From contig CM097883.1 in assembly GCA_044892505.1 (NCBI GenBank), forward strand, positions 136,896,001 to 136,960,000: DNA of 64,000 nucleotides, given 5' to 3'. Shown piece by piece: positions 28,092-53,031 of this stretch. This DNA is from Schmidtea nova (taxonomy: Eukaryota). The notes under the pieces were generated by a model. That model worked only from the letters and a program-made list of their open reading frames with translations. It made no database searches and was not told where the DNA came from. Each line of letters begins with the position of its first letter. Within the stretch, counting starts at the first letter, position 1. Position numbers and translations under genes: made by a program.

Positions 28092-28128
<37 letters not shown>
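28092..28128. repeat. (TA)n microsatellite abutting the giant element's left LTR
   Basis: Pure TA run immediately before the LTR's TG. Similar runs at ~18086 and ~23131. Confidence 0.95.
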
Positions 28129-28134
<6 letters not shown>

Positions 28135-28705
28135 CGGTTTCGGATGGGTTAAAACAAAAATAGAAAATGAATTAACAATTATTTTTAAACGCTCTAGGGA
28201 TTCCTCCATCCAAGACCTAACATAAAATGCTTACATATCACACGAGCACCCTCGATCATTTCCCTGTAATAATCGAGTTGGAAATGTGCAAGGTGTTTGA
28301 ACAATGATGGGCAGGTGAGCTCTATTGCTAAAACTACTCCCCATTTATGTTCACGGGTTCGTCTCGCTGCCGATAGAAGGACTTACGCTTTACTTTTATC
28401 TAATCGCATTCCTCATCTTTCATTTTAATTATTTCTTTTCTGCCCCCTGTCTTTATAATAATTCAATTTTTCTTTCAGCCCCCTTCTTTGCAATATCAAC
28501 AAATAATCTTTAATCAATTATAATATGTTATTTCTTTAATACTCTTATTGTTTATTATATTTATGTCAATCCTATTGTTAATTCTAATTTATATTTAATT
28601 CATTTGAAATTTTTAATAAATTACTTTATCTCATATACTTTACAATAAACTAAATACAAAGCAAAAATTAATTAATAAGCACAAATTTACAAATCACAAA
28701 AATTC

Positions 28706-29296
28706 CTATTCGAAATATTTAGTAATGTCTTCATCGGAGACTACCAAATTCATGGTTAAATCAATTTCCGGAATTTCTTTTGACTGTTGTGCCAATTGCT
28801 GAAGCACTTGCTTCTTCCAGCGACGCTGACGCGCGCCCATCTTGCTCTTCTTCTTCTTTTTACATTCTGGAATGGCTATACTATTTGGTGTAATTGCTGC
28901 TGTTGTTACTTGAACCTGAGATGGTTCATCTGTGTTTGTTCCTTTCGAACATCCGGATTTCTCTTCAGCCCAATGCTGACTGGTAATGGGTCTGATGAGT
29001 TGTCTTAACTCTTGATTTAAATAAGTAGCTGTCACCGATTTTAGGCACTTTTTCAGCTCCATCTTTGTAGCATCCAGTTCCATTTGCACTTCGCTGTTTG
29101 CTCGCTGTGAACGCTGGGTTTTGAGGATTTGTGCTTTCATTTGTTCTGGACTAAACCAGCTTTTCTTCAGGTTTGAAATTATACCATCGGCTTCTTTTAG
29201 TTTTTCGGATTTTCGCAATATTTCCTTTTCGAGGCTGCGAATTATCCGCCATGCCTTATCCAATTCTGCTTGATGATTTGTTGGGTTGAATGACAT
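28706..29296 (-). CDS. LTR-encoded 196-aa coiled-coil/basic protein (intact copy)
   Basis: ATG-to-stop ORF with heptad-like N-terminal half and basic KKKKKSKMGARQRRWKK segment. A homolog is present at 813-1367. Confidence 0.65.
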   Translation of the reverse strand: MSFNPTNHQAELDKAWRIIRSLEKEILRKSEKLKEADGIISNLKKSWFSPEQMKAQILKTQRSQRANSEVQMELDATKMELKKCLKSVTATYLNQELRQLIRPITSQHWAEEKSGCSKGTNTDEPSQVQVTTAAITPNSIAIPECKKKKKSKMGARQRRWKKQVLQQLAQQSKEIPEIDLTMNLVVSDEDITKYFE

Positions 29297-30152
29297 TTTT
29301 CTAGAATTCGAGATGATTTATCAACATGAAATTTGTTATTTGGTTTAAATGTATCTCCTGCTTTCCACGACTATTACTTGCTAATTTAGGAAGAGAAAAT
29401 GATATACCTATTATACTTTCAACACTGTCGCTATGTACAGCGATCAGATACCTTCATTTACTAATATGTTTTATTTATTTACGCCTGTGCTATATACAGC
29501 AATCAGGATAAGAAATTATTTAAATACAACTCAGATCTACTGCCCTATGTACAGGGTTCAGGATAATTAATCATATTTCATTAATGATTTAGCTGTGTTG
29601 AATCTTTGATCCTATAGCCTATTGATGCTATGCTACCTGCGTGGTAGATCACTACGCTATTAAAGTTATCGATTTTGATATTGTTATATTTAAAAGTATA
29701 TTTTGTACAAATTCTTAACCGTTGTATCTGCCGCTTTATGCCCACAAACCCCAGATGTGACAATCGAAAAATATAGGTTAACATTCTATTACTCCAAAGG
29801 TGGAATCAGATTAATAATAATCACATCTATTATTATCTTATGATAAAGTTTAACTCAATCCAAATACAACTTCGTGATACTCAAAAATCTATCATTGTCT
29901 AAAAAATGAAATCAGACTTCAACTGGTTATACTATCCAGCGATAATAATAATGTTAGAAATCATGGTTAATAAAAATTCCTACCCTCTTCACGGCGCTTT
30001 ACACCGGTCGGACGGCCTAACTGTACGGAGCAGTCATTCTACTCGGCACAGTATGCCTCCATTTCACCGATTTCACGGTGATCGGAGCCCCTTGAATCAT
30101 ACGTATATCTCTACTGTAACTACTGTACATAAATAATATATATATTCGCCTC

Positions 30153-30343
30153 CTTCCACTGATTGCACAGTGGAAGAAGCTCGACCCAAAAATTATTCAT
30201 AAAAGAATATATACTTGTTCGTAATTGTTAGCATAAACTGATACTGTTGCCTCCTTCCACTGATTACACAGTGGAAGAAGCTCAATAAAGTATAAATAAC
30301 AGATAAATAGAGTCGTCTCCTTCCCCTGATTTCACATTGGAAG
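30153..30343. promoter_or_regulatory. Three dyad/hairpin repeats CTTCCACTG-N6-CAGTGGAAG in the LTR
   Basis: Copies at 30153-30176, 30254-30277 and 30320-30343 (degenerate); repeated in the 5' LTR at ~51748-51941. Confidence 0.6.
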
Positions 30344-31169
30344 AAGCTTAAATAATTCTAAATTCAAAAAAATTATAAAGCCTATATAAAACTTCATAAG
30401 ATTTATTTAGGTTTAGATAATGTTGACAGAAATCATAAAAACAATAGCAACATAAAAATCAGAAATCCATACCTGTTAGCTTCAATAAAATTGTCTCGAC
30501 AAAGTTAGCACAAAATTTGCATATAACAATAATGCTTAAAAATATCATTAACTTTAACTGAATCTGGATCAGTATTTATACTGACCAGATCAAATGCTGA
30601 ACCAATCAGCTTGAAGCCGATCATCCGACCAGCACAAATAATAAATTTTTCTAAAAAATAAAATCGATTTAATTTGTTTTAAATCGTTAACTTTTCTTGT
30701 TTTAATTTCTAAAATTTTGTAATTCTTTTTCTTTATTATTTATTTACTTCACTTTCTTTTTATTTAAATACAATTATGTATCCTTTTCTTAATACTTTTA
30801 ATAATTTCAATTCTATTTCTTCTAATTCTTGCTGTTAAATTTATATAAATTTATTACTTTTAATTCATCTTTTTCTGAAATTTCTGGTAATTATATTAAT
30901 TTTAATTTATTCTTATTTATTTCTTATTATTCTTATTATTTATGCTAAATGTGGACCAAATGGTGGATCCAACATCACTCGGGGACCCCTAAAATTGCGT
31001 CCCGCAATTAATTATACAATATTACTTATATTCAACATTCAAAAAAAAATTTTTTACGCTTGGTACATAGGTATACAGATTCACATAAGGTGAGTTTATT
31101 CTACACGTAATCACGAAGAAAATATAAAGAAAATTCAGATAATTGTTAATCAAATGTTTTGTTAAGTAA

Positions 31170-32973: not shown

Positions 32974-34407
32974 CTACGCCAACCATCCTTTTCTATCTGC
33001 CTTCTCGTTCCTTTCCATTTCTATGTATAAGGTATCCTCATACAATAATCCCCATATCTTGCTTTGTAATACAAAGTATGGTTCTCCACTTGCTAATCCA
33101 CATTCTTCTGTTGGTCTATTGCTCGTATCTACTCCTTTTTCTGTCGTGAATCTCTTTTCTATGGTTTCGTTTAAACCCCTGATTTTTATTATTACTCCTA
33201 CTCCTATTGGCCATTCGATTAAATCGTCATATTCTCCTTTGCAAAACGCAAAGAATATCGATACGTGTTTTCCAATACCTTTTCCATCTCCGTTTGGATA
33301 TACTTTCAATCTCACTTTAGCCCCGTTTTTCCATAAGTAAAATGGTGGGCTTATTACCGCAACTTTCTTGAAGCTTCTTGCATCTTCTAATTTATTTCGA
33401 AAATCCGTTATTTTCCACACATAAGGTGCTATTGGTAAATCTTTTTTCTCATCAATTTCTTGTATTAATTTGTTATATTGCACTTTCATTCCTTTTGCTA
33501 ATTCCTTGATGGCTATTATTTTCTTTTCCATCTTTTCTCGGGTTAATTCAAATTGTTCTCTCGTTTCTAATAATAGGTTCATCATTATTTTATGAGATTC
33601 TACTTCCTTTTCTAATTTCTGAATTGTTCTGTCTGTCATTTCAATATGATTGATTGCTTCTGTTTCTAAATGTTGTTTCATAGTTTGTTGAGATTTCTTT
33701 TCTTTGCATCCATATCTGTTGTAAGGACATTCTCTTGATATTTCTGTACACTTTTCCCAATGTTCTCGTAATTTCACTTCTTCGGTAGTTTCACATTTGT
33801 TTGGGCACACTCCTACATACTGTTCGCATATTTTCTCTTCTTTTATATTGATGTGCTCCTCTTCAATTTTTCTCCTTGTTTCTCGAATTTCGCAATATTC
33901 ACATGCGATTTCTTCCTCTTTGCATCCATCTCTGTGTTTCTCTTTGTCTTTTAAAATTATCGTTTCTTTACACTTTTCACATTCGCTTCTCTTTTCTTCA
34001 CAATTTTCTATATGATTTTCAATTTCGCTGATTTGTCCTTGCCATATGCACGGTGGATTTATACATTCAATTAATATGCTCATGATTTCTCTCTGAGTTG
34101 CTCTATCTGGTCTTGTTTCGTCTACCACTATTTGTCCTTCTTTACATTCTGGGCATTCTGTAATTCTCTTTAACTCTAACATTTGTACACATCTAGTGCA
34201 TAATCTACATCCACAGGCGGTTTGCTTTGGTTTTCGTAATAAATTATTACAATATCCACATAAAAATCTCTTGTTCCAATTTCTGTTTGCTGCTCTCAAA
34301 ATCTCGACTGCTCGTTCCTCTTTATCCATTTCTACAATAATATATACATACATTGATTTGTTCTTTGTTTTTGATTTTTCTAGAGTTTTATTTTTACATA
34401 TATACAA
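32974..34407 (-). CDS. TRAF-family protein (RING, TRAF zinc fingers, coiled coil, MATH); likely start ATG 34329
   Basis: CGYC..PKQTACGCRLCTRC..CPEC RING; CEYC..H..C and CPN.C..H..C zinc fingers; MATH motif YVWKITDF..SPPFY..KVRLKVYPNGDG.G.GKHVSIFF..GEYDDLIEWP. Confidence 0.9.
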   Translation of the reverse strand: MYICKNKTLEKSKTKNKSMYVYIIVEMDKEERAVEILRAANRNWNKRFLCGYCNNLLRKPKQTACGCRLCTRCVQMLELKRITECPECKEGQIVVDETRPDRATQREIMSILIECINPPCIWQGQISEIENHIENCEEKRSECEKCKETIILKDKEKHRDGCKEEEIACEYCEIRETRRKIEEEHINIKEEKICEQYVGVCPNKCETTEEVKLREHWEKCTEISRECPYNRYGCKEKKSQQTMKQHLETEAINHIEMTDRTIQKLEKEVESHKIMMNLLLETREQFELTREKMEKKIIAIKELAKGMKVQYNKLIQEIDEKKDLPIAPYVWKITDFRNKLEDARSFKKVAVISPPFYLWKNGAKVRLKVYPNGDGKGIGKHVSIFFAFCKGEYDDLIEWPIGVGVIIKIRGLNETIEKRFTTEKGVDTSNRPTEECGLASGEPYFVLQSKIWGLLYEDTLYIEMERNEKADRKGWLA

Positions 34408-34425
34408 TTTTCCGCTGCAATTTGA

Positions 34426-34883: not shown

Positions 34884-37800
34884 CTATACTATCATCACTG
34901 CCTTTTCATCGTGTCGCTCCTCGTCTTCTATTTGCTTCCAAAATTCTTTGCCTTTGGTTCTTCTTTGGAATTCTTTCTTTACTTCTTCTGGTATTTTGAT
35001 TTTACAATTCATAATCTTTATATCTGGCCATTGTCTGGTTGGTTTCCTTTTTATTATGTCCCATAGCCATATTATTGATAATATTATTATTACTGGTACG
35101 CCTACTGCTAGTATTCCTACTCCAATTAATTCTCTTCTTTGCTTGTTAACATTGATTTGGGTGAATTTGCTCTGATTGATCATTGGTCCATATTGTCCTT
35201 TTAATTTGAGTTCCAATTGTTGTTGCTCTTGTTGTTTCCTTTTGACTTCCTGGATTACTTTTTCTGGTTTCCATTGTGCATAAGAATCTATTATTGTTTC
35301 CTCGTTTTCCATTTGTTTCGTTGTTTGATTCAGTTCTCCGAAGGTTAGCTTCTTGATTCTTCCTTTGATTGTTGTATTTGTCGATGTATAGTAGTTTCCA
35401 CATTTTTCTTGCTGGTTTCCAAATTTATCTGCCTTCTCTATTGCGCATATTTCGTATTGTTTGTCCAATTGTAGGTTCTGAATTCTGATCTCCTCTTCTT
35501 TATTCATCTTTTCGCATTGTTGTGGTTGTCTTTCTTCGTATTTCTTGATCATTGTCCAACATATTTCCACTGTTTTGTCATCTAATTTCCAAAGTATAAG
35601 TGTTGCTGAGGTTTTCCTCTCTGGTTCTGTTTGACTTTCGGTAGTGGTATGCTTCGGTTTTTGTTGACTTTTATTCTTTCGTATTGCTTTAATGGTTTTT
35701 ACTCTGTTCGGTGCTTTGTATATTCTGCATTCTAAATCTTCTTTCGTAATTTGATCATTTTCCTTTATTAGGCATATTTCATAAGTTTGATTTCTTTCTA
35801 AGCTTTTTATTTGTACTGCAGTTGTTCCTTTGACTGTTTGACATTGTGATGATTTATGTTTATTCGTTTCTTTCTCGTATTTTCTCCAGCATACTCCGTT
35901 TACGTTTTGTTCTATTCCCGTTATTTCTAACGTTATGGTTAATTTCTGGAAATTCTGGTTGTTTCTTTTCCCCATTTTTCTTGCAAACGTTATTATTTTC
36001 CCTGCTTGGAATGTTTTACAATTGGTTATTCCTTTCTTGTTTCTCTCTTTTTCCAATAAACATAGTTTATGAATTCTGTCTGTTTTTATCTTTATTATCT
36101 TGATTACTTTGTTCGTTTTACCCGCTTCCAGTTTCTGAATTTCTCTTGATTCCTTTAATTCTAATTTTTCATCGTTTCTAAACCAACATTTTTGATTTGT
36201 CATTTGTGTCTCTTCCATGTCTATTAATGTCATTGTATCCGTCTCTATTCCTTCTTCTAATCGCTTCAGTATTGTCATAATAAGTGCTATACATAACAAC
36301 TTGGAATTATAGATTACTCTTGTGGTTTGTTTCGTTCGTCTTTTTAGTTCTGGTTTATCCGTTGTATTTCTTATACTTGGTGTCGTTATCTTGGTTCTTG
36401 GTGGTTGTAAGGCTTTTCTTGATGCTGGTGCTCTTGTTATTTTAAAATAAATTGGTCCTGGAAGGTCTATTCCATTGGTGAACTCGTATCGAACTTTGGG
36501 TGTCTTGTATACTTGGCATGTAACTGTTTTGTGTGATTTTACGTCTTTGGGTTTTCTGATTGTACATATTCTGTACCATGTTTCCATATCCATTTCGTCG
36601 ATTATTATGGTCTTTCGCTCGGGGTTTGGGATTATACATCGTAATAGGTTGTTATCTCCGAGAATTTCATTCTCTTTTACCCAACATACTTGTTCAATGT
36701 ATTTTGAATTCATTATTTGTGTTGATGCTTTTTGTATTGGTACTTCCATTTCCACTGATATCTCTTGTTCCGTTGCTTCACATTGTCCCATAAGTGTTAT
36801 GATTATTGCAAACATTAATACTTCTGGTCTGAATAATGGATTCCTTCTGTAACTTGTTCCTTTCTTTCCATGATTGCTTTTAGGGTTGTCTTCTCTTTGT
36901 TCTTTGGATTCGTGGTTCTTTGTATTTCTCTCTTGATTCTCATCTTCTTTGTTGGTTTGTTCGTGGTTATCTGGGTTTCCGTGATTATTTTCATCATCAT
37001 CGTCTTTATTTCTCTCGTCGTCCTTGCTTTCTTCATCGTCATCCTCATTGTTAGTATTATTATCTCCCCCTGGCTCGTTAAAAATGTCGTCCTCGACATT
37101 ACTTGTTTCTATTAGTTTTGCATAATATAGTGATGTCAAGTTACTTGCTTCGAATTCTTGGAATTCTATATCTTCGGGTATCTTTTTGTTGTCTAACTGA
37201 TACTGTATAATTTCTTTCTTGGCTTTTATCCAACTTTGGAGGTGTGTTCTCATCAGTTCTTTCCATTTGACTACCTTTTCCGTTTCTTTAGGCTTGTTTG
37301 TAAATCTCAGATCTTCTCTTCTCATGAAAATTTCTACAATTTCGGGCCATATATAAGTTATGAGTGCGCTTTTGATACACCAATTTCGATTATTCTCCAT
37401 AAACTTGTTGACTTTAAATGCTGGTTTATTTGTATTTGGTATTTTCCAGTTTAATACTTCTTCTGTCAATTTGATGTTTTGCATCATTGTCAATACGCTT
37501 GGTCCTTTTACGGTTTCTGTTAAATAATCTATTTCTTCCTGGTTTGTTATCGTTTTAATGAAATTCAACATTTCCCAGTTTGGACCTAATAATGTCACGT
37601 CTAATATTGAGTTGTCTTTGCTAGTTTTTCCGATTAATCCTGCGCCTGCTTTATATAACTCTTCTAATACTTTGATTTTTGTTTTTGCTCTTGCTGCGTA
37701 TACCATAAGGGTGTCTCCTTTTTCGTCTATCATATTCATATCACATCCACATTGATGCATTAATTTTGCGATTTCGATTACTTTGCTGTCTTTTCCTGCT

Positions 37801-38147
37801 CTCAATGCTCTATGAATCGGCATTATTCTTTCTTTTGTTAATAAAAACGCAACTGGCATTTCTCTTTTTATAGTTATTATATCATCTCCATTATATATTC
37901 CTTTCGCGTACGCGTGTACCTTTTCTACTATCGCGCCAAGTATTTCTAAGGCGTATTTAGTATTTTTGAATTCTGGTAATAGTTCCTTTGCTTTTTTGTG
38001 TATTGCATCTAATCTTTCTTGGTAATCTATCTTCGCGTTGAACAATGGTGTGAGTATCCTTTTACTTTCTTCTTCTTTCTGATTTATTGCTTGATTAAAT
38101 TTTTGTAGCTTGTGTCTTTGCGTATTTGTTTTTGACACCATACCCAA
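34884..38147 (-). CDS. ORF2 (~1085 aa): ankyrin repeats, acidic linker, signal-like segment, four Cys-containing FN3-like repeats, C-terminal TM
   Basis: DMNMIDEKGDTLMVYAA ankyrin; VLMFAIIITLMGQCEA signal-like segment; repeated CW..C..I.I..L...Y.IC..C..Y modules; LIGVGILAVGVPVIIILSIIWLW TM. In the -1 frame, overlapping the ORF1 end. Confidence 0.8.
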   Translation of the reverse strand: MGMVSKTNTQRHKLQKFNQAINQKEEESKRILTPLFNAKIDYQERLDAIHKKAKELLPEFKNTKYALEILGAIVEKVHAYAKGIYNGDDIITIKREMPVAFLLTKERIMPIHRALRAGKDSKVIEIAKLMHQCGCDMNMIDEKGDTLMVYAARAKTKIKVLEELYKAGAGLIGKTSKDNSILDVTLLGPNWEMLNFIKTITNQEEIDYLTETVKGPSVLTMMQNIKLTEEVLNWKIPNTNKPAFKVNKFMENNRNWCIKSALITYIWPEIVEIFMRREDLRFTNKPKETEKVVKWKELMRTHLQSWIKAKKEIIQYQLDNKKIPEDIEFQEFEASNLTSLYYAKLIETSNVEDDIFNEPGGDNNTNNEDDDEESKDDERNKDDDDENNHGNPDNHEQTNKEDENQERNTKNHESKEQREDNPKSNHGKKGTSYRRNPLFRPEVLMFAIIITLMGQCEATEQEISVEMEVPIQKASTQIMNSKYIEQVCWVKENEILGDNNLLRCIIPNPERKTIIIDEMDMETWYRICTIRKPKDVKSHKTVTCQVYKTPKVRYEFTNGIDLPGPIYFKITRAPASRKALQPPRTKITTPSIRNTTDKPELKRRTKQTTRVIYNSKLLCIALIMTILKRLEEGIETDTMTLIDMEETQMTNQKCWFRNDEKLELKESREIQKLEAGKTNKVIKIIKIKTDRIHKLCLLEKERNKKGITNCKTFQAGKIITFARKMGKRNNQNFQKLTITLEITGIEQNVNGVCWRKYEKETNKHKSSQCQTVKGTTAVQIKSLERNQTYEICLIKENDQITKEDLECRIYKAPNRVKTIKAIRKNKSQQKPKHTTTESQTEPERKTSATLILWKLDDKTVEICWTMIKKYEERQPQQCEKMNKEEEIRIQNLQLDKQYEICAIEKADKFGNQQEKCGNYYTSTNTTIKGRIKKLTFGELNQTTKQMENEETIIDSYAQWKPEKVIQEVKRKQQEQQQLELKLKGQYGPMINQSKFTQINVNKQRRELIGVGILAVGVPVIIILSIIWLWDIIKRKPTRQWPDIKIMNCKIKIPEEVKKEFQRRTKGKEFWKQIEDEERHDEKAVMIV

Positions 38148-41100
38148 ATTTTTCTGAATAACGCTTCCTTTTCGACTTCTAGTTTGTATTCTTTTTCGTT
38201 CTTACTAATATTTATTTTTCCTCTATTCATTAGTGCTAACATCGTTCTCTGATCGCACGGAATCTCTAATAAGTATCTCAATAGTGCATTCTGTCCTTCG
38301 CTAAATTCTTTGTTTATATCTAATACCCATGTTTTATTATTCGGCCATTTCCATTGTATTAGTTTCCATATTGTTTTAGTGTTTCCTTTCCGAATCGCTT
38401 CCTTCATAATTTCTCCTTTGATTAGTTCATCGATTTCCCATGTGAGGTTGGTTGTTATATGTTTTAGTATCATTTGATTTTCACTCATTATTGCATGGTT
38501 TAAAACTGTGTTTCCTCTTCTATCCCGAGCTGTCCAGTTGAATTCTGCGTTTATCAATATATCTACTATTTCTTTATCTGCTAATTTTAGTGTTGCTGTC
38601 ATCATTGGCGTTTCTAATTCTCGATTTACAATGTCTAGATTTTGATTCGTTTCTTTTGCTATTTTCAAAAATTCTTTTACTTTTTCCGTTTTACCCCAAC
38701 TTATGGCATTGTGTAGTGCAGTTGCACCTCCTGTATCTTGTAATACGAGTATCTCTGGTATTTTCTTTAGTAATTCTATTATAACTGGTTTGGTTGGGCA
38801 TCCTCGTGCGTAATCACTGATTATTTGTCGTATATCCCATAAAACGTCTTTTTCTCGTCTGATTTCCCATCTTTCGTTTATTTCTTTGGCTTTTCGTACG
38901 ATTTCTTTGTCAACATCGATTTTCTCACTGTCTACTTGACTAGTTGTGTTAATTTCTTCCGCTCTGAGCATATTTATTCTGATGGTTTGTGATCTCGTCA
39001 TGGATTTCTCTTCCGGTATCATTATTTGTTTCGAGTTTATTACTTTTGCTTCCATGGCACATATTTTCCCTGTTCTGTCCTTTAATCTCATTGTTCCAAG
39101 ATCGATGATTATTTCTTTAAATAGTGTTGGCATTAAATCTGTTCCGATTATACATGGTACGCTTAAAGCTGGTATTACTGCTACATACGTTTCGATTTCT
39201 ATATTTTGGTGTCGTATTTTTACCCACCATCTTCCTGCAACTTCAACTATCTCTTTGCTACATGCTTTTACATGAACATTTGTTCTTTCAATCTCTTGTC
39301 TCTGTTCTTGCGGTATCCATTTGATATCTATCGCTGAAATGTTTGCTCCTGTATCTATCATCGCTTCTATTTCTTTTCCATTTATTTCTATGGTTGTAGT
39401 TAATACTGGTCCTGTATTCGATGACATGACTGCAATTGTGAGTGAATCTTCTTGCGGATCCATACTTCTACATCGTCTTAGTTTATAATCTTCTGGTATA
39501 ATTGGATATAAAGTTGTCATTGGCATCATTTGCATTGCTCTGTGTCCTGATACCTGTAATGGTTCTTGGTACATTGTTGGTGGAGGTGCGTGACATTTCC
39601 ATGCTTCTGCTGGATTCTTGTCGTTATATTGTGGTGCTTGGTTTCTGTACCTTTGTCCTCCTTCACAGTCGTCATTATTATCATCGTCATCGCTGGAATC
39701 ATCTTGGGTTTTATCTCCTCTTATTCTTTCCAATAATCCTTTTCTTTCTCTTTTTAATTGTAATCTCGCTTGTTCATCTGTCATTATCTTTTTGAATTTT
39801 CTTCCCACGTCTTCGTCTGTTCCTTTCATTTTTGCCAGTATTTTTAATAATCTTTTTATTCTATGAATATCTTTGGAGTGACCATGTAACACCATCGTTT
39901 TTGCTAAAAATGGTAAAAATCCTGCTATTAATTTCCAATTAACTTTCTTTTCTCTTTTGTAAATATCAAAACATGCTAGCATTTGTGTGATTATCACTCG
40001 TATTATTTGTATGATCAAAATTACACCTAATATTCCGGCCATCATTTGTCCGAAAATTAAAAATCGTCCCCACATTGCTCTCATCATATTTTCTGTCGCT
40101 TTCCTAAAGTGTGCTGGTGACAATAATAATTCATAATTTGGTCCTCCTTGATAACTTGTTCCTCCTGTTATCGTTACAATGCTAGATAATACCGCTTCTC
40201 TTCTAGCTGGAAATAATATATTTTGTCGTGCTGCTTCGAGATCTTTTGCACTGTAAATTCCTCCGTTATTTACATCTATATTGGAAAATTTTCGTCCTTT
40301 TGAAAGTTGCATCAATTCAAATTCTCTAGGTGGTTGTACTTCTGATCTTGACGGAAACATGACCCAATTTCCGTCTGGTTTCTGATATAATGGTCCATAT
40401 GCATTACTGCAATTGAAAGGGTTTGGTTCAAAACTGACTGGATTAATGATCCTTGTCACTGGTTGCACATATCTTATTTTCCCTTTATATTCAATTTCTA
40501 ATTCGTTGGTACATTGTCCTTGTCGTAGTCTGGTCGTTGATGCTATGCTTGCTTGTGTCTTTCGGCATATATATACATACATAACTTCTCCAACTACTCT
40601 TCCAAAATGACCTTCGTTAAGTGGTAGTAATGGCATCGCACTATCCGGGTTTGTAATTGCTACTGCTAATTTCGTCTTTAATATTTCTCTGTTCAATATA
40701 CAATCGTTGTTAATGAGATCGTAGTATATTTTCTCCATTGATGCTTGACCTTTATGAAATAAAAAATCCAATTTGTTATTTAAATATACTTGTAATTTGA
40801 TGTCTGTAGTATCTATCTTGGGTTTTGCATTTGGTGCTGCTTGTCTTGATACATAAATACCTGGATAATTTGTTTCTAACATAGAAACACCACATTTTAA
40901 TGTGGGTTTTCCTTTTACAAACCTCATTCCTATATTTGCGTTTGATGTAACCAATACTGTTGGCGTATCTCTCATCCTCACCTCTTTTTCTTGTACTTTA
41001 GCGGTGAACGGTTTCTCTCCTTTTACTGTCTCCTGTAGACGTTTTCCTCTTGCTACTTCATCATCTTCTTCTTCCTGAAAGATTTTTCCTTGTACTTCGT

Positions 41101-44100
41101 CGAACTCTGCTTCATTTAATAATTGTAATTGGCATTCATTCGCTTTTGCTCTGTATGTTAAGGTCGACATACCGGTTTGACAGGTACTGGCTTCAATTTT
41201 ACACATTGATAACGTCTTCATTTCTCCTGTTGCTGGGTCAAAATATGCTTCATATGCTTTTAATTCTACCGTATACGTGTCTATTACTACCATGTTAGTT
41301 GCTGGTACTCCAAATATCGGATATGTTGCTCCTTGACAGTAACCTTCTCCTCCTGTGATAGCTCCTGCTACATAATAAGTTTGTTGTAGTATTACTCCAA
41401 CTTTTCCTTTTATCTTTATTCGATCTCTTGTTTCGACTTCTCCATGTCTAAACAATTTATTGCAATCTTCTCCTTGTAACATTATCGCTTCTCTTTCCGT
41501 TCCTGGCATTACGATTGCAGAGTAGTGGCGATGTCCACAATAAAAAGCGAATCTTGTTTTATATATTTTACACTCGTTAACTGTTGTCTTTATTAATTCG
41601 GCTTCCTGATATACGTGATATATTTGTTTACTATGTAATACTTTTAATTCTGTTGGAGTTGCATCTTTGCATTGTTCGGTTCCTCTTAATGAATATTTTT
41701 CTCCTAATGCCATCTGGTCGCAATCAAATACTTCGAACGTTGTTGCTCCTTCAACGCTAATTAGCCATATTAATATCATCATTATGATTGAATTCAGGTT
41801 TAGTGAAGATTTTCCACTTCCTGTTCCTGACTTTTCTTTTTCTAATTCCCCTAAAATTTCTTCAAATTTCTTTTTCATATTCTTTGCTTGACCGTTTCTT
41901 TGATTCGTTTTAGCAAATGTTTCCCATCCTCCTTTACTGATGACGTATGGCTCTATTTCTCTTGTTATGATACTTGCTGTATTTTTGATATGCTTCTCTA
42001 TTGCCGTAGATTTTGGATTACCTCTACTCAATGTTAATAAGTTATAAATTGTATACGCAATTGCTATCACATATTTATTATCATTTTCTGCATCTTCAGT
42101 TAACCTCTTTATCAACGTTGTGGTCCCTTGCCAATCTAAATGGCTTGATTTTGTCTTTTCTTTTATTAGTTCGGGTAAGATTGGTGCGATTGCGCTATGT
42201 AATGCTTTAGCCTTGTCGCTTATTTCGTTTATTCTCCACCATTTTTTCAATTCTGGATCAATTATCGCCAGTATTTCCATTAATGCTTTTGATATCCATC
42301 CTTCGCCTTGACATTTTTGCGTTGTTTCTTTGTCTTTGGCTTCTGCTATTTTGTTAAGTTTCTTTAAACATATTTCCCATTTCTCTTGTCTCCTTTCCTC
42401 TTTGGTTTTGTTGATTGTGTTTGCTGGACCTGTCTTTGGTCTACCTCTAGATCGTTTATCCATTGTTGTACCTGTTTCAATCAATCTGGTTTCTCGTCCG
42501 GTTTCTTCTGTAATATCTCTTGGTTCGTTATTTCTCTGTTCCCACCATTTTTCCATTTCTTGTGTTAATCGTTCGTTTTCTGTATTTGCTCCTCTTGCTT
42601 CTTCTTCAGAGATTTCGTTCACTTCTTCTATCTCTATTTCTTGCTCAACTTCATTTTGGGTATTGATTGCTTGTGATGTTGTGGGTAACTCTTGTACTCT
42701 TTCGAAAATATTATTGCCTTTTTCTTTTGTCAAATTAGTTAATTCTTCTAGCATATCATCGCTGTCTGTTAAGATCTCTTCTACTCCGTATGGTTGTGGT
42801 AGTGTTCTTTCTTGAACTTTAATTGATGTTGTTTCGTATTGTCCTGCGCTTGTTCCTGGCTTTATCTGCATCGTCTTTCTTGGTTTCTGAGTGTCTTCAC
42901 TTTCTTTTACTCTTTTCTCTTTAAGTGTTAATGGTTGACCTGCTATTGCGTCTACTGTTAACGTATTTGCCAGTTCTAACTGTGCTGGCGTTATCCAAAT
43001 TTCCATATCGTTTTCTAATGATCGTCCTTGATGTTGTAGATGAAATGGTGGTTCATATTTTAATCTCTTTTTAACATCCCGAATCTTTTCAGTTAATCTT
43101 ACCCAAAGCTCTTCTTTTTCTCGATCTGGATATATTATCCTTAAATGTATTTTCTGCGGTGGTTCTTGGGAGTTTTCCTGGTTTCTCCATTTCTTGATTA
43201 CATTGCCTAATTGTTCTGGGCACCACTCGTTAACTCGTTTATATTCTGCTACTGCCTTGGCTACTTTTCTTAAACTGATTATATCTTCGCCGCCTGCTAC
43301 GAAAAATTCGGCTAATCCTTTGATCGTTCGCCTTTTTCCTTGTACATTCCCTTTTAGTAATTCTATAAGTTCGTCAGCTTTTCGTCTTTGTGTTTCTAAC
43401 CATATTGCTGCGGTTTCTGGTCCATCTAAATCTGTTGGCATGACTTTTCTTGTCACCATACAAACTCTTCTGATTTCTGGTTCATATTTATCTTCCATTT
43501 CTGGTCTAAATTCCTCTTCATATATACCTCCTTTTGCTTTCCAGCATTTCTCTTTAACATCCCAGTGTTTCTCTACTGGTGTTAATCGGCGTTCGTTGAA
43601 GTTTAATTCTCCTAATACATTTTCCCATTCTGGCTGTATCTGCCATCTTCGATAAATTTCAATTATTTGTCTTAGTTTGTGCATCTCTTCTCTTCGACGT
43701 TCTTGTCTCCTTTTTTCGTCTTTTGGTGTTTCTCTTGGTGTATCATCCATTCTGATGACATGAATTGTTTGGTAATTATCCCATATACCGATTTTATATA
43801 ATCGTCTCTCATCATGATCTCCTAGTACGTGTTCATTATATTTTATGATGATATCATCTTCTAATTCGTCTTCTTTTTCCCGTTGTAGTAAAGTTTCATT
43901 GATAACATCAACTAATTCTTCTACTGTGCAATCCGCGATTACTTCAATTTCTTTTGTGTCCTCGTTTGGTAATTTCACTTTGATTTTTAAATCTCCTATT
44001 TCTCCTCGTTTAAACATTGCTTTTCCCATTTTCGCGATCACTTTCCAAGTCTTGTACGGCGAATATCTCGTATGGCTGGTATCTCGTATATTTTCGATGC

Positions 44101-47100
44101 ATTGTTTTAATTTCTCATATTCAGCTTTCGTTAATTCTTCTCTATTCTTGTCGATTTGTTGAATAATTTGTTCTATTAGGGAATTTAAATTTTCTCTAAG
44201 AATTCTTTCTTTCCTTTCTGTTAACTGTGGTTTAATTCTCATCTCAAAACACATATTTGCTTCCTTTGCTATTTCTTGTAGATTCTCCTCTTTCTTATTG
44301 TCACATATTGATAATGTTGTTATCTCTCCTGGCCATATGCCTGTTTCTACCAAATGCGTTGCTCGTCTTACAAGTTCGTTTCCTGAATATATAAATTTGT
44401 TTTTATACGAACTTCCCAATCTGTCTTCTACCCATCGATAAATTTCGTTCATGCATGGAGATTTGATCCAAATTCTTGGTAAACATTCGTTTATTTCTAT
44501 TAAAATTATGTATTCGTGGAGTGGTTCTTCTAATAGTTTGACGACGTATCCTGATAATATCTCTACTTCACGACTTTGTAATCGTTCTTTATAGTTCATT
44601 CGGAATACTGCTCTTATAAATTTTCGATATCGCTTCTTATCAATAAATTCCTCGTTATAAATCACTTCTAACGCATTATCTAATAGTTTCCGAATTTCAT
44701 CTTCTTTTATTTGTATATTTTCTGGCGTCTTCGCTACTTCTATCTTGTTGTCTTCATTTTCTGGTTCTTTTAGCATATCTCCTGCTAAACTTCTGACATC
44801 ACTGTCACTTTCTACATCTGAAAATTCTCTAGTTAAGTTTCTTAACATATTTATGTGTGCTGTCTGTTCTACTTTATCTGGTACATTCTTTGGTGATATT
44901 TCTTCCTTTTTGTCATTGGTTCCTGATTCTTCTATTTGGCCTCTTCGTTTCTCTATTTCCATTGCTTTTCTCTGTTTGATTCTCTCTTCAAATATCTTCA
45001 ATGCTCTACTTTTGACTTTTGTTACTGGATTTGATTTCTCTTCATCGTTATTTTCTTCTATTTCCTGGATAACTGTGACTTTCATTTTATTCATTGGTAC
45101 TCCTAAATCTTTCCATATGTCGGTTGGTTTCAATTTTATTGCTGCTTCGTCTTCTGTCTGTAAAATTGCTTCTCGGGGTAGTTTCGTCATTCCCGGAATC
45201 GTCTTGTTTACTTTATTAATTAATACTCCTACTTCCTCTTTTTCATCATATTCAAATCGAAATACATGATCGTTTGGCATGACTACCAACATCCTTTTTT
45301 GTTCAATAACTTCTTCGTTTTCTTGTACTATTTCTTTTTGGTTTTCTTCATCCTCCGGATTTGGGTTTATCCGGTTTGTTTCTGGTTCAATATCTTCTTT
45401 GTTATCTCTTGTTTGATTCGTTGCTCTCATCATATTAATTCTCAATGGTTGTCGTTCTCTTTCTTGTCGTTTCTGTTCGTCTTCTCTTTGTATTCTTGCC
45501 CATTCTTGAGCATGTCGTGCTTGACTTTCTCGATTTAGTCGTTCATTTTCACTTTCTACTTTTCTCATCATATTCATTTGTTGTTGATTCGTTTGTTGAT
45601 TTCCTCTCGGTGTATTGTTTATTAACTCTGTTAATCTTTGAACTTCTTGTAATAAATGTATCTCCTTGGTGGTACTTTTGTTTTGATTATAACTACTCTG
45701 TTGATTTCCATAATTCTGACGGTTTCCGTTATTCTGTTGATTCACATAATTTTGTCGATTTCCGTTGTTCGACCAATTCCTTTGTTGGTTGTTTTGTTGT
45801 TGGCAGTTCCTTGCCGTATGACCTGGTTGTCCACAGTTAAAACATGATCTTTGATAACATCTATTTTCCGAATGTCCTTTCCTTCCACACGTTTTACAAT
45901 TTAAGTTCACGAAACATTCTTGTTGCCAATGTCCTAACTTTCCACAGGTTTGACATTGCTTTGTCTGTCCTTGCGTATTGTAATGATTTTGGTTTCCGAA
46001 ATTTTGTACTTTGTTTCCTTCATTTCTCCTTTGAGGTGGTGGTCGATTTAATTGCTGTGAATTCGGAATATGGTTATTTATCTTTATTGCTTGTTCGTTT
46101 TGTGTCGTATCCATTGCTAGGTAAATTCTTCCTTCGCTTCCGATCATATGTAATTCGAATCTGTTGGCGACTTCCAACGCTTCATCTATTGTCTTACAAC
46201 CTTGGCATCCAACTTGTGCTCTTATATCGGGTCTTCTCAATCCCCCCACAAAAATTGCTGCCATTAATTCTGGACTCATTGGACTATTTTGATTGAATGC
46301 TAGTTTAGCCAATTTCTTTAATTCACTTGCATATACTGCATTTGATTCATTAACTTTTTGTTTCCTCATTGAAAATTCGGTAAACGCTTCATTTAATACT
46401 TTATTTATTCCAAACGTTTGCTGGAAAAAATTCTTTATCTTTTCCCAACTATCGAGTTGATCATCTGAATTTTTAGCTTCTAAATATAAATCTAACGCAC
46501 TGTCTTTTAAATATAGCTGAATTCTGCTCCTTATCGTTTCTGGATTCCATTTACATACTTCTACAAATATACCAAATTCTTTTAAAAACGTTTCTAACTT
46601 GCTGGCATCTCCATTGAATGGTTCTCCAGTAAATTTATCTTTGATTTCTTCTTTATGTTCGTTCATTTCTATTCCACTGTCTTGTGTCGTTTTACTCTCG
46701 TTTCCTCTTGTTTCACTAGTATGCTCGTTATTCGTTTCGTTTGAATTGTTATCAATTTCTGCTTCTTCTACTTCTGTATTTATTGACTCGTTATCTGATG
46801 CTTCTGTATTATTATAATTATCGTAGGTTTCACTTGAACTTTCTTCTGTTTCACTTTCGTTAGTTTTTGTTAATTTACTGTTTTCGATTTTTGACTTTTC
46901 TACTATTACTCTTCTTGATTTACTTCCTTTAGGATTTGTTTTCTTTGTAACACTGGTTGCTCTTTGTTTCGATTTACTTCTCTGTGAATTATCAACTTTT
47001 TGAGTTGTAGCACTAACTGCTCTTGATCTCAATTTATTTCTCTGTGAATTATTAACTTCTTGGTTTTTAACTGTTCTTGATCTCGGTTTACTTTTCTTTG

Positions 47101-47152
47101 ATTTATCAATTTTTTCTGTTTCTCTGCTATCGTATTCTGATTGATTGGTTGG
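38084..47152 (-). CDS. ORF1 polyprotein (~3000 aa): Gag - UBL x3 - Bcl-2-like - glycoprotein - aspartic protease - ankyrin
   Basis: Stop-free from 47152 (first ATG 46666). Gag EPFNGDASKLETF..LYLKDSALDLY; CCHC x3 at 45803-45955; BH2-like PYVISKGGWETF; glycoprotein FEVFDC..FYCGHRHY..NDCILNREILKTKLAVA; IDTGANISAI (39347-39355); ATALHNAI ankyrins. Confidence 0.9.
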   Translation of the reverse strand, partial: PTNQSEYDSRETEKIDKSKKSKPRSRTVKNQEVNNSQRNKLRSRAVSATTQKVDNSQRSKSKQRATSVTKKTNPKGSKSRRVIVEKSKIENSKLTKTNESETEESSSETYDNYNNTEASDNESINTEVEEAEIDNNSNETNNEHTSETRGNESKTTQDSGIEMNEHKEEIKDKFTGEPFNGDASKLETFLKEFGIFVEVCKWNPETIRSRIQLYLKDSALDLYLEAKNSDDQLDSWEKIKNFFQQTFGINKVLNEAFTEFSMRKQKVNESNAVYASELKKLAKLAFNQNSPMSPELMAAIFVGGLRRPDIRAQVGCQGCKTIDEALEVANRFELHMIGSEGRIYLAMDTTQNEQAIKINNHIPNSQQLNRPPPQRRNEGNKVQNFGNQNHYNTQGQTKQCQTCGKLGHWQQECFVNLNCKTCGRKGHSENRCYQRSCFNCGQPGHTARNCQQQNNQQRNWSNNGNRQNYVNQQNNGNRQNYGNQQSSYNQNKSTTKEIHLLQEVQRLTELINNTPRGNQQTNQQQMNMMRKVESENERLNRESQARHAQEWARIQREDEQKRQERERQPLRINMMRATNQTRDNKEDIEPETNRINPNPEDEENQKEIVQENEEVIEQKRMLVVMPNDHVFRFEYDEKEEVGVLINKVNKTIPGMTKLPREAILQTEDEAAIKLKPTDIWKDLGVPMNKMKVTVIQEIEENNDEEKSNPVTKVKSRALKIFEERIKQRKAMEIEKRRGQIEESGTNDKKEEISPKNVPDKVEQTAHINMLRNLTREFSDVESDSDVRSLAGDMLKEPENEDNKIEVAKTPENIQIKEDEIRKLLDNALEVIYNEEFIDKKRYRKFIRAVFRMNYKERLQSREVEILSGYVVKLLEEPLHEYIILIEINECLPRIWIKSPCMNEIYRWVEDRLGSSYKNKFIYSGNELVRRATHLVETGIWPGEITTLSICDNKKEENLQEIAKEANMCFEMRIKPQLTERKERILRENLNSLIEQIIQQIDKNREELTKAEYEKLKQCIENIRDTSHTRYSPYKTWKVIAKMGKAMFKRGEIGDLKIKVKLPNEDTKEIEVIADCTVEELVDVINETLLQREKEDELEDDIIIKYNEHVLGDHDERRLYKIGIWDNYQTIHVIRMDDTPRETPKDEKRRQERRREEMHKLRQIIEIYRRWQIQPEWENVLGELNFNERRLTPVEKHWDVKEKCWKAKGGIYEEEFRPEMEDKYEPEIRRVCMVTRKVMPTDLDGPETAAIWLETQRRKADELIELLKGNVQGKRRTIKGLAEFFVAGGEDIISLRKVAKAVAEYKRVNEWCPEQLGNVIKKWRNQENSQEPPQKIHLRIIYPDREKEELWVRLTEKIRDVKKRLKYEPPFHLQHQGRSLENDMEIWITPAQLELANTLTVDAIAGQPLTLKEKRVKESEDTQKPRKTMQIKPGTSAGQYETTSIKVQERTLPQPYGVEEILTDSDDMLEELTNLTKEKGNNIFERVQELPTTSQAINTQNEVEQEIEIEEVNEISEEEARGANTENERLTQEMEKWWEQRNNEPRDITEETGRETRLIETGTTMDKRSRGRPKTGPANTINKTKEERRQEKWEICLKKLNKIAEAKDKETTQKCQGEGWISKALMEILAIIDPELKKWWRINEISDKAKALHSAIAPILPELIKEKTKSSHLDWQGTTTLIKRLTEDAENDNKYVIAIAYTIYNLLTLSRGNPKSTAIEKHIKNTASIITREIEPYVISKGGWETFAKTNQRNGQAKNMKKKFEEILGELEKEKSGTGSGKSSLNLNSIIMMILIWLISVEGATTFEVFDCDQMALGEKYSLRGTEQCKDATPTELKVLHSKQIYHVYQEAELIKTTVNECKIYKTRFAFYCGHRHYSAIVMPGTEREAIMLQGEDCNKLFRHGEVETRDRIKIKGKVGVILQQTYYVAGAITGGEGYCQGATYPIFGVPATNMVVIDTYTVELKAYEAYFDPATGEMKTLSMCKIEASTCQTGMSTLTYRAKANECQLQLLNEAEFDEVQGKIFQEEEDDEVARGKRLQETVKGEKPFTAKVQEKEVRMRDTPTVLVTSNANIGMRFVKGKPTLKCGVSMLETNYPGIYVSRQAAPNAKPKIDTTDIKLQVYLNNKLDFLFHKGQASMEKIYYDLINNDCILNREILKTKLAVAITNPDSAMPLLPLNEGHFGRVVGEVMYVYICRKTQASIASTTRLRQGQCTNELEIEYKGKIRYVQPVTRIINPVSFEPNPFNCSNAYGPLYQKPDGNWVMFPSRSEVQPPREFELMQLSKGRKFSNIDVNNGGIYSAKDLEAARQNILFPARREAVLSSIVTITGGTSYQGGPNYELLLSPAHFRKATENMMRAMWGRFLIFGQMMAGILGVILIIQIIRVIITQMLACFDIYKREKKVNWKLIAGFLPFLAKTMVLHGHSKDIHRIKRLLKILAKMKGTDEDVGRKFKKIMTDEQARLQLKRERKGLLERIRGDKTQDDSSDDDDNNDDCEGGQRYRNQAPQYNDKNPAEAWKCHAPPPTMYQEPLQVSGHRAMQMMPMTTLYPIIPEDYKLRRCRSMDPQEDSLTIAVMSSNTGPVLTTTIEINGKEIEAMIDTGANISAIDIKWIPQEQRQEIERTNVHVKACSKEIVEVAGRWWVKIRHQNIEIETYVAVIPALSVPCIIGTDLMPTLFKEIIIDLGTMRLKDRTGKICAMEAKVINSKQIMIPEEKSMTRSQTIRINMLRAEEINTTSQVDSEKIDVDKEIVRKAKEINERWEIRREKDVLWDIRQIISDYARGCPTKPVIIELLKKIPEILVLQDTGGATALHNAISWGKTEKVKEFLKIAKETNQNLDIVNRELETPMMTATLKLADKEIVDILINAEFNWTARDRRGNTVLNHAIMSENQMILKHITTNLTWEIDELIKGEIMKEAIRKGNTKTIWKLIQWKWPNNKTWVLDINKEFSEGQNALLRYLLEIPCDQRTMLALMNRGKINISKNEKEYKLEVEKEALFRKIWVWCQKQIRKDTSYKNLIKQ
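38096..38102 (-). other. Candidate -1 ribosomal frameshift heptamer A-AAU-UUA
   Basis: In ORF1 phase (..AAA AAT TTA ATC AAG CAA TAA), three sense codons before the stop. A -1 slip enters ORF2. Confidence 0.55.
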
Positions 47153-47624
47153 TTAGTTTGACTTGTTCTGTTCCGTGTATCTAAATTAAAAAGTCACTTC
47201 AACGATACATCATTGTTATCGTTGCGCTTTTATTCCTCATTATTGGGTTTCCATTGTTTCCCCATTCCCGGTTTCCCCTTTATTTAAGTCTATTTAATTT
47301 ATCTATTCACTGGTAACAATTATCTATATGGTCGTAATAATTATCTATCGTTATCAAATAAATTCATTACTTCTCCCTCGGTCTCCCAAATAAATTTGTC
47401 GCTCAGACGCTTTAATTCCCCTGAGTTCTCCTGACTCAGTTTTATCCTTTTATTACTATTCATTATATCGTCATTACTCATTATTCTCACTAATCAACTC
47501 TAATTTCTCCTATTCTTATTTCTACTTGTATGCATACTGTATCTCTAGTTTACTTAATCATCTTTACTCGTATTACTCAAACTCTAATGCTCACTATTCT
47601 TACGTCGTCGACGACTACAACTCT

Positions 47625-49721: not shown

Positions 49722-50304
49722 AATTTATGTTGTCGGTTTCGGATTGGTTAAAACAAAAATAGAAAATGAATTAACAATTATTTTTAAACGTTCTAGGGAT
49801 TCCTCCATCCAAGACCTAACATAAAATGCTTACATATCACACGAGCACCCTCGATCATTTCCCTGTAATAATCGAGTTGGAAATGTGCAAGGTGTTTGAA
49901 CAATGATGGGCAGGTGAGCTCTATTGCTAAAACTACTCCCCATTTATGTTCACGGGTTCGTCTCGCTGCCGATAGAAGGACTTACGCTTTACTTTTATCT
50001 AATCGCATTCCTCATCTTTCATTTTAATTATTTCTTTTCTGCCCCCTGTCTTTATAATAATTCAATTTTTCTTTCAGCCCCTTTCTTTGCAATATCAACA
50101 AATAATCTTTAATCAATTATAATATGTTATTTCTTTAATACTCTTATTGTTTATTATATTTATGTCAATCCTATTGTTAATTCTAATTTATATTTAATTC
50201 ATTTGAAATTTTTAATAAATTACTTTATCTCATATACTTTACAATAAACTAAATACAAAGCAAAAATTAATTAATAAGCACAAATTTACAAATCACAAAA
50301 ATTC

Positions 50305-50894
50305 CTATTCGAAATATTTAGTAATGTCTTCATCGGAGACTACCAAATTCATGGTTAAATCAATTTCCGGAATTTCTTTTGACTGTTGTGCCAATTGCTG
50401 AAGCACTTGCTTCTTCCAGCGACGCTGACGCGCGCCCATCTTGCTCTTCTTCTTCTTTTTACATTCTGGAATGGCTATACTATTTGGTGTAATTGCTGCT
50501 GTTGTTACTTGAACCTGAGATGGTTCATCTGTGTTTGTTCCTTTCGAACATCCGGATTTCTCTTCAGCCCAATGCTGACAGGTAATGGGTCTGATGAGTT
50601 GTCTTAACTCTTGATTTAAATAAGTAGCTGTCACCGATTTTAGGAACTTTTTCAGCTCCATCTTTGTAGCATCCAGTTCCATTTGCACTTCGCTGTTTCT
50701 CGCTGTGAGCGCTGGGTTTTGAGGATTTGTGCTTTCATTTGTTCTGGACTAAACCAGCTTTTCTTCAGGTTTGAAATTATACCATCGGCTTCTTTTAGTT
50801 TTTCGGATTTTCGCAATATTTCCTTTTCGAGGCTGCGAATTATCCGCCATGCCTTATCCAATTCTGCTTGATGATTTGTTGGGTTGAATGACAT
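50305..50894 (-). pseudogene. Frameshifted copy of the LTR ORF
   Basis: cgctgtttctcgc here vs cgctgtttgctcgc in the 3' LTR. The 1-bp deletion splits the ORF into 80-aa and 127-aa pieces. Confidence 0.85.
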
Positions 50895-52170
50895 TTTTCT
50901 AGAATTCGAGATGATTTATCAACATGAAATTTGTTATTTGGTTTAAATGTATCTCCTGCTTTCCACGACTATTACTTGCTAATTTAGGAAGAGAAAATGA
51001 TATACCTATTATACTTTCAACACTGTCGCTATGTACAGCGATCAGATACCTTCATTTACTAATATGTTTTATTTATTTACGCCTGTGCTATATACAGCAA
51101 TCAGGATAAGAAATTATTTAAATACAACTCAGATCTACTGCCCTATGTACAGGGTTCAGGATAATTAATCATATTTCATTAATGATTTAGCTGTGTTGAA
51201 TCTTTGATCCTATAGCCTATTGATGCTATGCTACCTGCGTGGTAGATCACTACGCTATTAAAGTTATCGATTTTGATATTGTTATATTTAAAAGTATATT
51301 TTGTACAAATTCTTAACCGTTGTATCTGCCGCTTTATGCCCACAAACCCCAGATGTGACAATCGAAAAATATAGGTTAACATTCTATTACTCCAAAGGTG
51401 GAATCAGATTAATAATAATCACATCTATTATTATCTTATGATAAAGTTTAACTCAATCCAAATACAACTTCGTGATACTCAAAAATCTATCATTGTCTAA
51501 AAAATGAAATCAGACTTCAACTGGTTATACTATCCAGCGATAATAATAATGTTAGAAATCATGGTTAATAAAAATTCCTACCCTCTTCACGGCGCTTTAC
51601 ACCGGTCGGACGGCCTAACTGTACGGAGCAGTCATTCTACTCGGCACAGTATGCCTCCATTTCACCGATTTCACGGTGATCGGAGCCCCTTGAATCATAC
51701 GTATATCTCTACTGTAACTACTGTACATAAATAATATATATATTCGCCTTCTTCCACTGATTGCACAGTGGAAGAAGCTCGACCCAAAAATTATTCATAA
51801 AAGAATATATACTTGTTCGTAATTGTTAGCATAAACTGATACTGTTGCCTCCTTCCACTGATTACACAGTGGAAGAAGCTCAATAAAGTATAAATAACAG
51901 ATAAATAGAGTCGTCTCCTTCCCCTGATTTCACATTGGAAGAAGCTTAAATAATTCTAAATTCAAAAAAATTATAAAGCCTATATAAAACTTCATAAGAT
52001 TTATTTAGGTTTAGATAATGTTGACAGAAATCATAAAAACAATAGCAACATAAAAATCAGAAATCCATACCTGTTAGCTTCAATAAAATTGTCTCGACAA
52101 AGTTAGCACAAAATTTGCATATAACAATAATGCTTAAAAATATCATTAACTTTAACTGAATCTGGATCAG

Positions 52171-52204
52171 TATTTATACTGACCAGATCAAATGCTGAAC
52201 CAAT
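52171..52204 (-). promoter_or_regulatory. Candidate LTR promoter: TATAAATA inside a palindrome plus CCAAT box
   Basis: Minus-strand TATAAATA at 52178-52171 within ctgg-a-tcagtat-tt-atactga-ccag; aaccaatcag ~22 nt upstream. Same arrangement at 30573-30606. Confidence 0.4.
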
Positions 52205-53031
52205 CAGCTTGAAGCTGATCATCCGACCAGCACAAATAATAAATTTTTCTAAAAAATAAAATCGATTTAATTTGTTTTAAATCGTTAACTTTTCTTGTTT
52301 TAATTTCTAAAATTTTGTAATTCTTTTTCTTTATTATTTATTTACTTCACTTTCTTTTTATTTAAATACAATTATGTATCCTTTTCTTAATACTTTTAAT
52401 AATTTCAATTCTATTTCTTCTAATTCTTGCTGTTAAATTTATATAAATTTATTACTTTTAATTCATCTTTTTCTGAAATTTCTGGTAATTATATTAATTT
52501 TAATTTATTCTTATTTATTTCTTATTATTCTTATTATTTATGCTAAATATTGACCAAATGGTGGATCCAAGTAATTTTCATGGAAGAAGTTCGATGAGCA
52601 CACAAAAGCCACAGTAGGTATTTTGGAAAGATATTCAACCATCACTAGTATCCTTAGTCAACTTATACTTAGTATCTAATATCAAAGGAAAGAGTGAAAT
52701 GGGGCTTCAAGACAATAATATTTTGCAAAAAATTTGAAAAGTTTTTTTTTCATTTATGCTTGGTCCTATGTGTTATATTACTTCTATAAAGCATGTAGAA
52801 TTTTTAGACAAAATAAGTAACAATTTTTATGAAATTGAAAAACAAGCAAAGATGACAAAGTTAAGAGAAAGAAAATGACGGGGATGAAAATACTCTCTAC
52901 AAAAGATAAATTATCTTTTTTTGTTGAAAAATAAAATGTTAAACAAAAATATAATTCACTGAATATTTTCTATATTAATTAAAATTTAAAAAGTCTTAAA
53001 AATATATTAAATAAATTATTAAAATAAATAT

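Follow-up and report, generated by a model that had tools for sequence, protein, structure and literature searches.

The window, by which we mean the whole 64,000-nucleotide stretch of Schmidtea nova DNA analyzed here, contains an LTR element on its minus strand (28124-52570; 24.4 kb), which is bounded by 2849-bp LTRs at 28124..30972 (3′ LTR) and 49723..52570 (5′ LTR) that are 99.6% identical over the 2849 columns compared. Despite this 99.6% identity, two terminal bases are missing from the 5′ LTR, a TA run abuts the element at its opposite end, and no target-site duplication was evident at 28124 or 52570. The leader between the 5′ LTR and the first large ORF contains tandem repeats of 41 and 25 bp (47617-48252 and 48696-48833). 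That ORF (ORF1; 38084..47152, minus strand; 3022 aa from stop to stop) encodes a polyprotein with a gag region bearing CCHC knuckles, a weak ubiquitin-like match, a Bcl-2-like domain, an envelope glycoprotein, a protease, and an ankyrin match. The envelope glycoprotein was identified as a Monjiviricetes-type fusion protein (39911..41737, minus strand; PF24664, E 6.6e-71) with a membrane segment near aa 2370 by hydropathy, and the protease as a retroviral-type aspartic protease (39125..39397, minus strand; PF00077, E 2e-07). A second part of the polyprotein, with a weak ankyrin match and a C-terminal membrane segment, lies at 34884..38201 on the same strand; in a sister copy it is continuous with ORF1, and in the window copy the frame is broken by a small deletion near 38,100. 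An accessory ORF further downstream (32974..34425, minus strand) is TRAF-like, having a RING, TRAF zinc fingers (PF02176, E 1.4e-07), and a MATH domain (PF22486, E 3.3e-20). Further cargo is represented by three or four cysteine-containing repeats ahead of the C-terminal membrane segment within 34884-38201, by a coiled-coil-like ORF at 32035-32871, and by a small membrane protein at 31170-31739, none of which gave a convincing Pfam match. The ORFs flanking the element, at 11730-12767, 19345-21701, 25659-27170, and 53032-55014, correspond to a DEAD-box helicase, a DUF4371 protein, a RING finger protein, and a G-patch plus GCFC protein; the DUF4371 ORF is presumably hAT-transposase-like.

The window copy and its subfamily lack reverse transcriptase (RT), RNase H, and integrase after the protease and were, therefore, filed as a non-autonomous derivative. 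A sister ORF of 5140 aa contains approximately 1000 extra residues, including an RT motif, at this place, whereas a sister ORF of 4118 aa does not, like the window copy. The junction left without pol was matched at full length in all 40 copies scored from 519 candidates. The subfamily with the 4118-aa ORF has been amplified with gag, Bcl-2, envelope, protease, and TRAF retained under purifying selection, and is, hence, non-autonomous yet envelope-bearing.

With long LTRs on either side of one giant gag-env-pro polyprotein, the element agrees with the published description of Burro-type Ty3/gypsy elements, to which it was assigned on the basis of its architecture. As described in the available text of PMC6431247 (Arkhipova and Yushenova 2019), which draws on Jurka 2007 and Grohme et al. 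2018, the planarian Burro or GYPSM1 giant Ty3/gypsy elements share with the present one a huge ORF with gag, ubiquitin-like, and BCL2-like parts, an envelope before the protease, and ankyrin and TRAF. The autonomous sister ORF, at 5140 aa, matches in length one Burro-like ORF1 of that text. Two differences from Burro as portrayed in that text are that the window subfamily is without RT, RNase H, and integrase, and that it has the TRAF ORF downstream of ORF1, where Burro has it upstream.

The domain of interest occupies aa 1616-1749 of ORF1 (41906..42307, minus strand), in which the AlphaFold model places eight helices; its extent rests on this model, on Foldseek and VIA-align matches, and on profile tests. 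The first-pass annotation had proposed a helical Bcl-2-like segment here on the strength of its C-terminal stretch, ITREIEPYVISKGGWETF, which corresponds to aa 1729-1746 of the minus-strand ORF at 38084-47152 (nt 41968-41915). The BH2 motif, PYVISKGGWETF (41915..41950, minus strand), aligns with the BH2 of Bcl-xL and has the same G and W throughout 23 rows drawn from six families, and the BH2 residues are the most conserved positions of the domain in the 23-row alignment, although the window copy has Y in place of the usual first W. The GGW was kept in all 30 near copies fetched. A search of the same genome yielded 1244 candidates, the best 150 of which, when scored, were 79-100% identical; an internal stop was present in 11 of these, a share biased by the choice of the best copies.

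To evaluate homology, a profile built from host Bcl-2 paralogues (11 of 14 host-type loci, three having been dropped for a stop or an intron within the match) was run on the window domain and gave 28.3 bits, a score that none of 500 shuffled sequences attained (best, 8.7), so that the proposed Bcl-2-like segment proved real. A profile of the other five element families gave 29.4 bits, compared with 15.2 for the best shuffle. When the BH2 end was fixed and the remainder shuffled, 0 of 500 sequences reached the domain score (best, 20.0), and the domain without BH2 still outscored all 500 shuffles, if narrowly (8.3 vs 6.1). Thus, the homology signal is not confined to BH2. An hhalign comparison gave 76.8% with an E of 2.1e-05, and the family profile matched Bcl-xL at E 4.8e-08. 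Judged by these comparisons, the domain is homologous to the host Bcl-2 paralogues. In single-sequence searches, all 37 PDB matches at E up to 10 were to Bcl-xL (best E 0.23), and the window domain alone had no match in Pfam or the ESM Atlas. Homologue searches started from the domain region and from the alignment, in which near-length proteins only were considered, gave no usable match either; a single match among protein representatives, to a repetitive 2363-aa protein, was judged spurious. No relative from outside this genome was, therefore, obtained. The Pfam Bcl-2 profile matched 14 of the 23 rows of the first element alignment at E up to 1, the window row not being among them, and matched four other families scanned at E 1.8e-06 to 0.018.

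The predicted structure points in the same direction. The best AlphaFold model, the one confident model among five, for which the input was the 23 element rows only and included no host sequences, had a mean pLDDT of 64.5 and a pTM of 0.62, with a core mostly at 70-89, and the other four models had a mean pLDDT of 50-51. When this model was compared with 48,161 chains by VIA-align, ranks 1-35 were all Bcl-2 folds, the top match being Hydra HyBcl-2-4 (Z 12.2; rmsd 2.6 over 137 residues) and the first other fold scoring Z 4.8; the structural comparison suggested by the first-pass annotation thus bore out its reading of the segment. As helical bundles can often reach Z values of up to about 13, the weight rests on the gap from 12.2 to 4.8 and on the matches being uniformly Bcl-2. 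The closest structural neighbors were BH3-binding cellular Bcl-2 proteins (Z 10-12), whereas the groove-less poxviral proteins A46, A52, and A49 scored Z 5.3-5.8. Foldseek against the PDB gave, among the matches listed, the Bcl-2 family only, with a best E of 7.7e-3; in a second Foldseek search, nine of the ten highest ranks went to viral Bcl-2 proteins, and neither search gave a match at E 0.001 or better. Large DNA viruses are the best-known source of viral Bcl-2 proteins. Taken together, it is very probable that the window segment has, as predicted, a Bcl-2 fold, a helical bundle with a hydrophobic helix at its center.

The BH1 motif had been called unrecognizable. The canonical NWGR is indeed absent, but its position can be aligned, by comparison with the host paralogues and among variant copies, as NDNK at aa 1690-1693 (42074..42085, minus strand). 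The BH1 glycine was found at none of 76 matched loci, a count in which some places were fetched twice and from which the search pattern missed the sixth family, and tryptophan occurred at one place only, through a CpG change; the NWDR of that copy was considered as an ancestral W and rejected, since it reflects a CGG-to-TGG change at a single place. The sixth family reads NREV. Of the 11 host Bcl-2 paralogues, nine retain the W of this motif and two retain the G. According to the portion of PMC2148190 available, the G138A mutation of Bcl-xL abolishes both Bax binding and rescue, and with NWGR lost, canonical BH3 binding by the element domain is, therefore, doubtful. A search of four 10-kb stretches for the BH3 segment of a host gene of Bak/Bax type found none.

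A search of the genome with the Pfam Bcl-2 profile gave 30 loci above the cut-off, consisting of 16 element copies and 14 host-type genes. There are, hence, at least 14 host-type Bcl-2 loci, and BH1 is altered in most of them. The Pfam Bcl-2 loci, combined with an envelope search, led to five more element families, which fall into three deep lineages with identities of 45-49% in RT and 36-42% in the envelope. These families are about 13-15 kb long, and each encodes the same gag, Bcl-2, envelope, and pol, RT included, in a single ORF of 2992-3401 aa that closes with one more membrane segment. In the copies examined, the parts scanned gave neither a TRAF nor an ankyrin match. The order of Bcl-2-like domain, linker, hydrophobic segment, peptidase-type site, and envelope is common to all six families, and as the 13-15 kb families share it, this layout is not restricted to giant elements.

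The domain of the window family is under purifying selection, with dN/dS about 0.1 (0.09 against the autonomous sister and 0.13 against the pol-less sister, the latter on few changes). The corresponding values for the envelope in the same pairs were 0.08 and 0.11, and those for the linkers were 0.23-0.28. In the two closest pairs of other families, the Bcl-2 domain was only 44-49% identical compared with 84-92% for the envelope; its dN between other families was 0.43 compared with 0.04-0.07 for the envelope, at a dN/dS of about 0.29, making it the fastest-changing folded part. Recombination was considered for the low Bcl-2 identity between two families and rejected, because the synonymous distance is similar along the ORF. 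Linker identity between families was 30-48%, and the stretch between Gag and the domain, of 450-1150 residues, is poorly conserved. In the phylogeny with host paralogues that had been suggested, the element domains fell on one side of a branch with support of 96/94 against 11 host paralogues, in an unrooted tree with long branches and no outgroup. The Bcl-2 domain was, on this tree, likely captured once from the host.

The domain had been placed directly before the signal peptide of the glycoprotein, but about 35 aa lie between the two and include a predicted helix (aa 1755-1774; 41831..41890, minus strand) of low confidence in the AlphaFold model (pLDDT about 40-55), in which the linker and the signal segment are mostly below 50. 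The internal signal sequence of the envelope corresponds to aa 1781-1805 (41738..41812, minus strand), with a cut predicted after aa 1805 from hydropathy and the residues at -3 and -1. In all eight ORFs from the six families, a basic stretch is followed by an uncharged run of 14-23 residues with small residues at -3 and -1; the predicted cut is then followed by three residues and a conserved [FY]DC, and the distance from GGW to the cut is 55-70 aa. In three sister families, the match to the Pfam glycoprotein profile starts within this segment, which suggests that the segment is likely the envelope's own native signal, and anchoring by it may be a by-product of that function. Its hydrophobic core is short, the 19-residue hydropathy being 1.47-1.97 in the window family compared with 2.57 for the envelope anchor, and hydropathy revealed no other membrane segment available to the Bcl-2 domain. 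Given that Gag is upstream and cytosolic, the segment would, by the established topology of the secretory pathway, stay on the Bcl-2 side after the cut. The dual use proposed in the first-pass annotation, in which one segment would serve as envelope signal and Bcl-2 anchor, gains support from the conservation of the peptidase-type site. We consider it probable that the domain is anchored by the envelope signal at least just after the predicted cleavage, and the dual use as such is a reasonable and plausible reading with viral precedent. Separately, an old derivative of another family has kept gag, Bcl-2, and the signal segment and lost envelope and pol; its break lies a few residues past the cut site, where the final membrane segment of the ORF has been joined on, as seen in 7 of 12 loci, all of which are decayed. 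This supports a lasting anchor at most weakly. Two host loci, L066 and L069, have BH2, a basic linker, and a hydrophobic tail in one frame.

The account that we favor, at a probability of roughly one in two for the whole, is that a divergent, host-captured domain with a predicted Bcl-2 fold stands in frame ahead of the envelope of a Burro-type LTR element and acts from the ER membrane to keep host cells from dying. A signal-peptidase cut after aa 1805 would leave the envelope signal on the domain as an ER anchor, with the domain on the cytosolic face, a topology modeled on that of HCV core-E1, in which, according to the available text of PMC5402940, a cut internal envelope signal peptide anchors the upstream protein in the ER membrane. 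The upstream protein of HCV is the capsid, which is later freed by signal peptide peptidase, whereas here it would be a captured host fold in a retroelement. The element's own protease could free the domain from Gag, and the domain would then restrain host cell death, probably via contacts other than NWGR-BH3 pairing. The loss of NWGR weakens the case for such an anti-death role, for and against which we see the odds as even. The domain resembles pro-survival Bcl-2 proteins (Hydra HyBcl-2-4, Bfl-1/A1, Bcl-xL, and herpesviral vBcl-2) in its predicted bundle, its BH2, and the hydrophobic segment after the domain. It differs from them in that it is without NWGR, lies within a polyprotein, would acquire its anchor by cleavage rather than by a stop codon, and would likely enter the ER rather than be targeted to mitochondria.

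Other explanations were weighed against this account. That the GGW match arose by chance in an unrelated helical spacer might be suspected from the E of 0.23 to Bcl-xL in the single-sequence search and from the lack of a Pfam match, but it is contradicted by the host-profile, shuffle, and hhalign results, by the family-profile match to Bcl-xL, and by the fold searches, and we regard it as exceedingly improbable. The fold could instead have been kept while its use left apoptosis, so that the domain blocks innate-immune or stress signaling together with the TRAF and ankyrin cargo. The available text of PMC2494871 describes such a change for vaccinia A52 and B14, whose Bcl-2 fold was turned from apoptosis to blocking innate-immune signaling, and the poxviral proteins A52, B14, A46, and A49 resemble the element domain as Bcl-2 folds without canonical BH motifs in a viral setting. 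The loss of NWGR in all six families, the fact that the element also encodes ankyrin repeats and a TRAF ORF, and the rapid amino-acid change of the domain in other families are consistent with this. However, unlike A46, A52, and A49, the element domain keeps BH2 and its model is nearer to the BH3-binding cellular proteins; the examined 13-15 kb copies have the domain although neither TRAF nor ankyrin was matched in the parts scanned, and the host paralogues themselves vary at BH1, so that a role in immune signaling appears unlikely.

Two further possibilities accept the domain and its signal but assign them differently. The signal might be only a signal, removed after the first cut by signal peptide peptidase or the element protease, with Bcl-2 working untethered like mature HCV core; the second cut known from HCV (PMC5402940, in the text available), the short hydrophobic core, the homology of the segment to the start of the viral glycoprotein profile, and the poor linker identity between families all fit this. 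Nevertheless, the spacing from Bcl-2 to the signal stays at 55-70 aa in lineages whose RTs are 45-49% identical, the domain has no other membrane segment, and a host paralogue has a similar basic linker plus tail past BH2, which together make removal of the anchor rather unlikely. Alternatively, the domain might stay on Gag and, with the signal, tether Gag to the membrane beside the envelope as a matrix-like assembly spacer. The order of gag, Bcl-2, signal, and envelope in all six families, the retention of the domain by the pol-less subfamily, and a conservation equal to that of the envelope in the window family would be expected of such a part, but the poorly conserved residues between Gag and the domain, the persistence of BH2 residues as the most conserved positions, and the retention of the domain and signal by the old env-less derivative argue against it, and we consider this structural role quite improbable.

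With regard to precedence, the arrangement, which had been thought possibly new, is not so in its domain order: Bcl-2 then envelope is already in print, since the available text of PMC6431247 describes the Burro envelope as lying in frame between BCL2 and the protease. The same text credits Grohme et al. 2018 with having noted a BCL2-like motif in Burro-2, -3, and -4 and relates that the apoptosis-related cargo of Burro was taken to suggest meddling with the host; the terms "signal peptide" and "anchor" do not occur in it. The anti-apoptotic Burro protein that had been mentioned in connection with this domain is a different one, as the available text of PMC13465017 identifies the Burro1 protein (B-IAP; Dev Cell 2026, cited therein) as a host-derived IAP with RING plus BIR that acts on caspases and protects stem cells; no BIR match was present among the element ORFs scanned with Pfam. 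B-IAP is likewise a Burro-borne, host-derived regulator of cell death, whereas the element domain here has a predicted Bcl-2 fold. No literature on an envelope signal serving as a Bcl-2 anchor was found, and Grohme 2018 and Dev Cell 2026 may already discuss topology or BH1. The present analysis adds a fold prediction, conservation across six families, a cleavage site, the loss of BH1, and the pol-less subfamily; we did not find in print the conserved cleavage site, the loss of NWGR in every family, or an amplified pol-less subfamily with Bcl-2 and envelope.

Burro elements are a published retroelement case of Bcl-2 cargo, and their IAP is tied to stem-cell survival in the portions of the literature cited above. 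What had been a motif-level annotation is now testable, through a predicted fold, a predicted cleavage site and topology, and six natural families without NWGR. More broadly, it is possible, if doubtful, that a Bcl-2 leader of the envelope was ancestral to a whole clade of enveloped retroelements in flatworms, 13 to 30 kb in length, and forms their core, in which the segment is both envelope signal and Bcl-2 anchor, each envelope leaves behind one ER-anchored Bcl-2, and, with NWGR gone, host cell fate is controlled via a non-canonical surface. If the anchor reading is true, one Bcl-2 would be produced for every envelope synthesized, and elements that number more than a thousand candidate copies in an animal capable of regeneration would carry, beside the IAP, a second and older cargo for the control of cell death.
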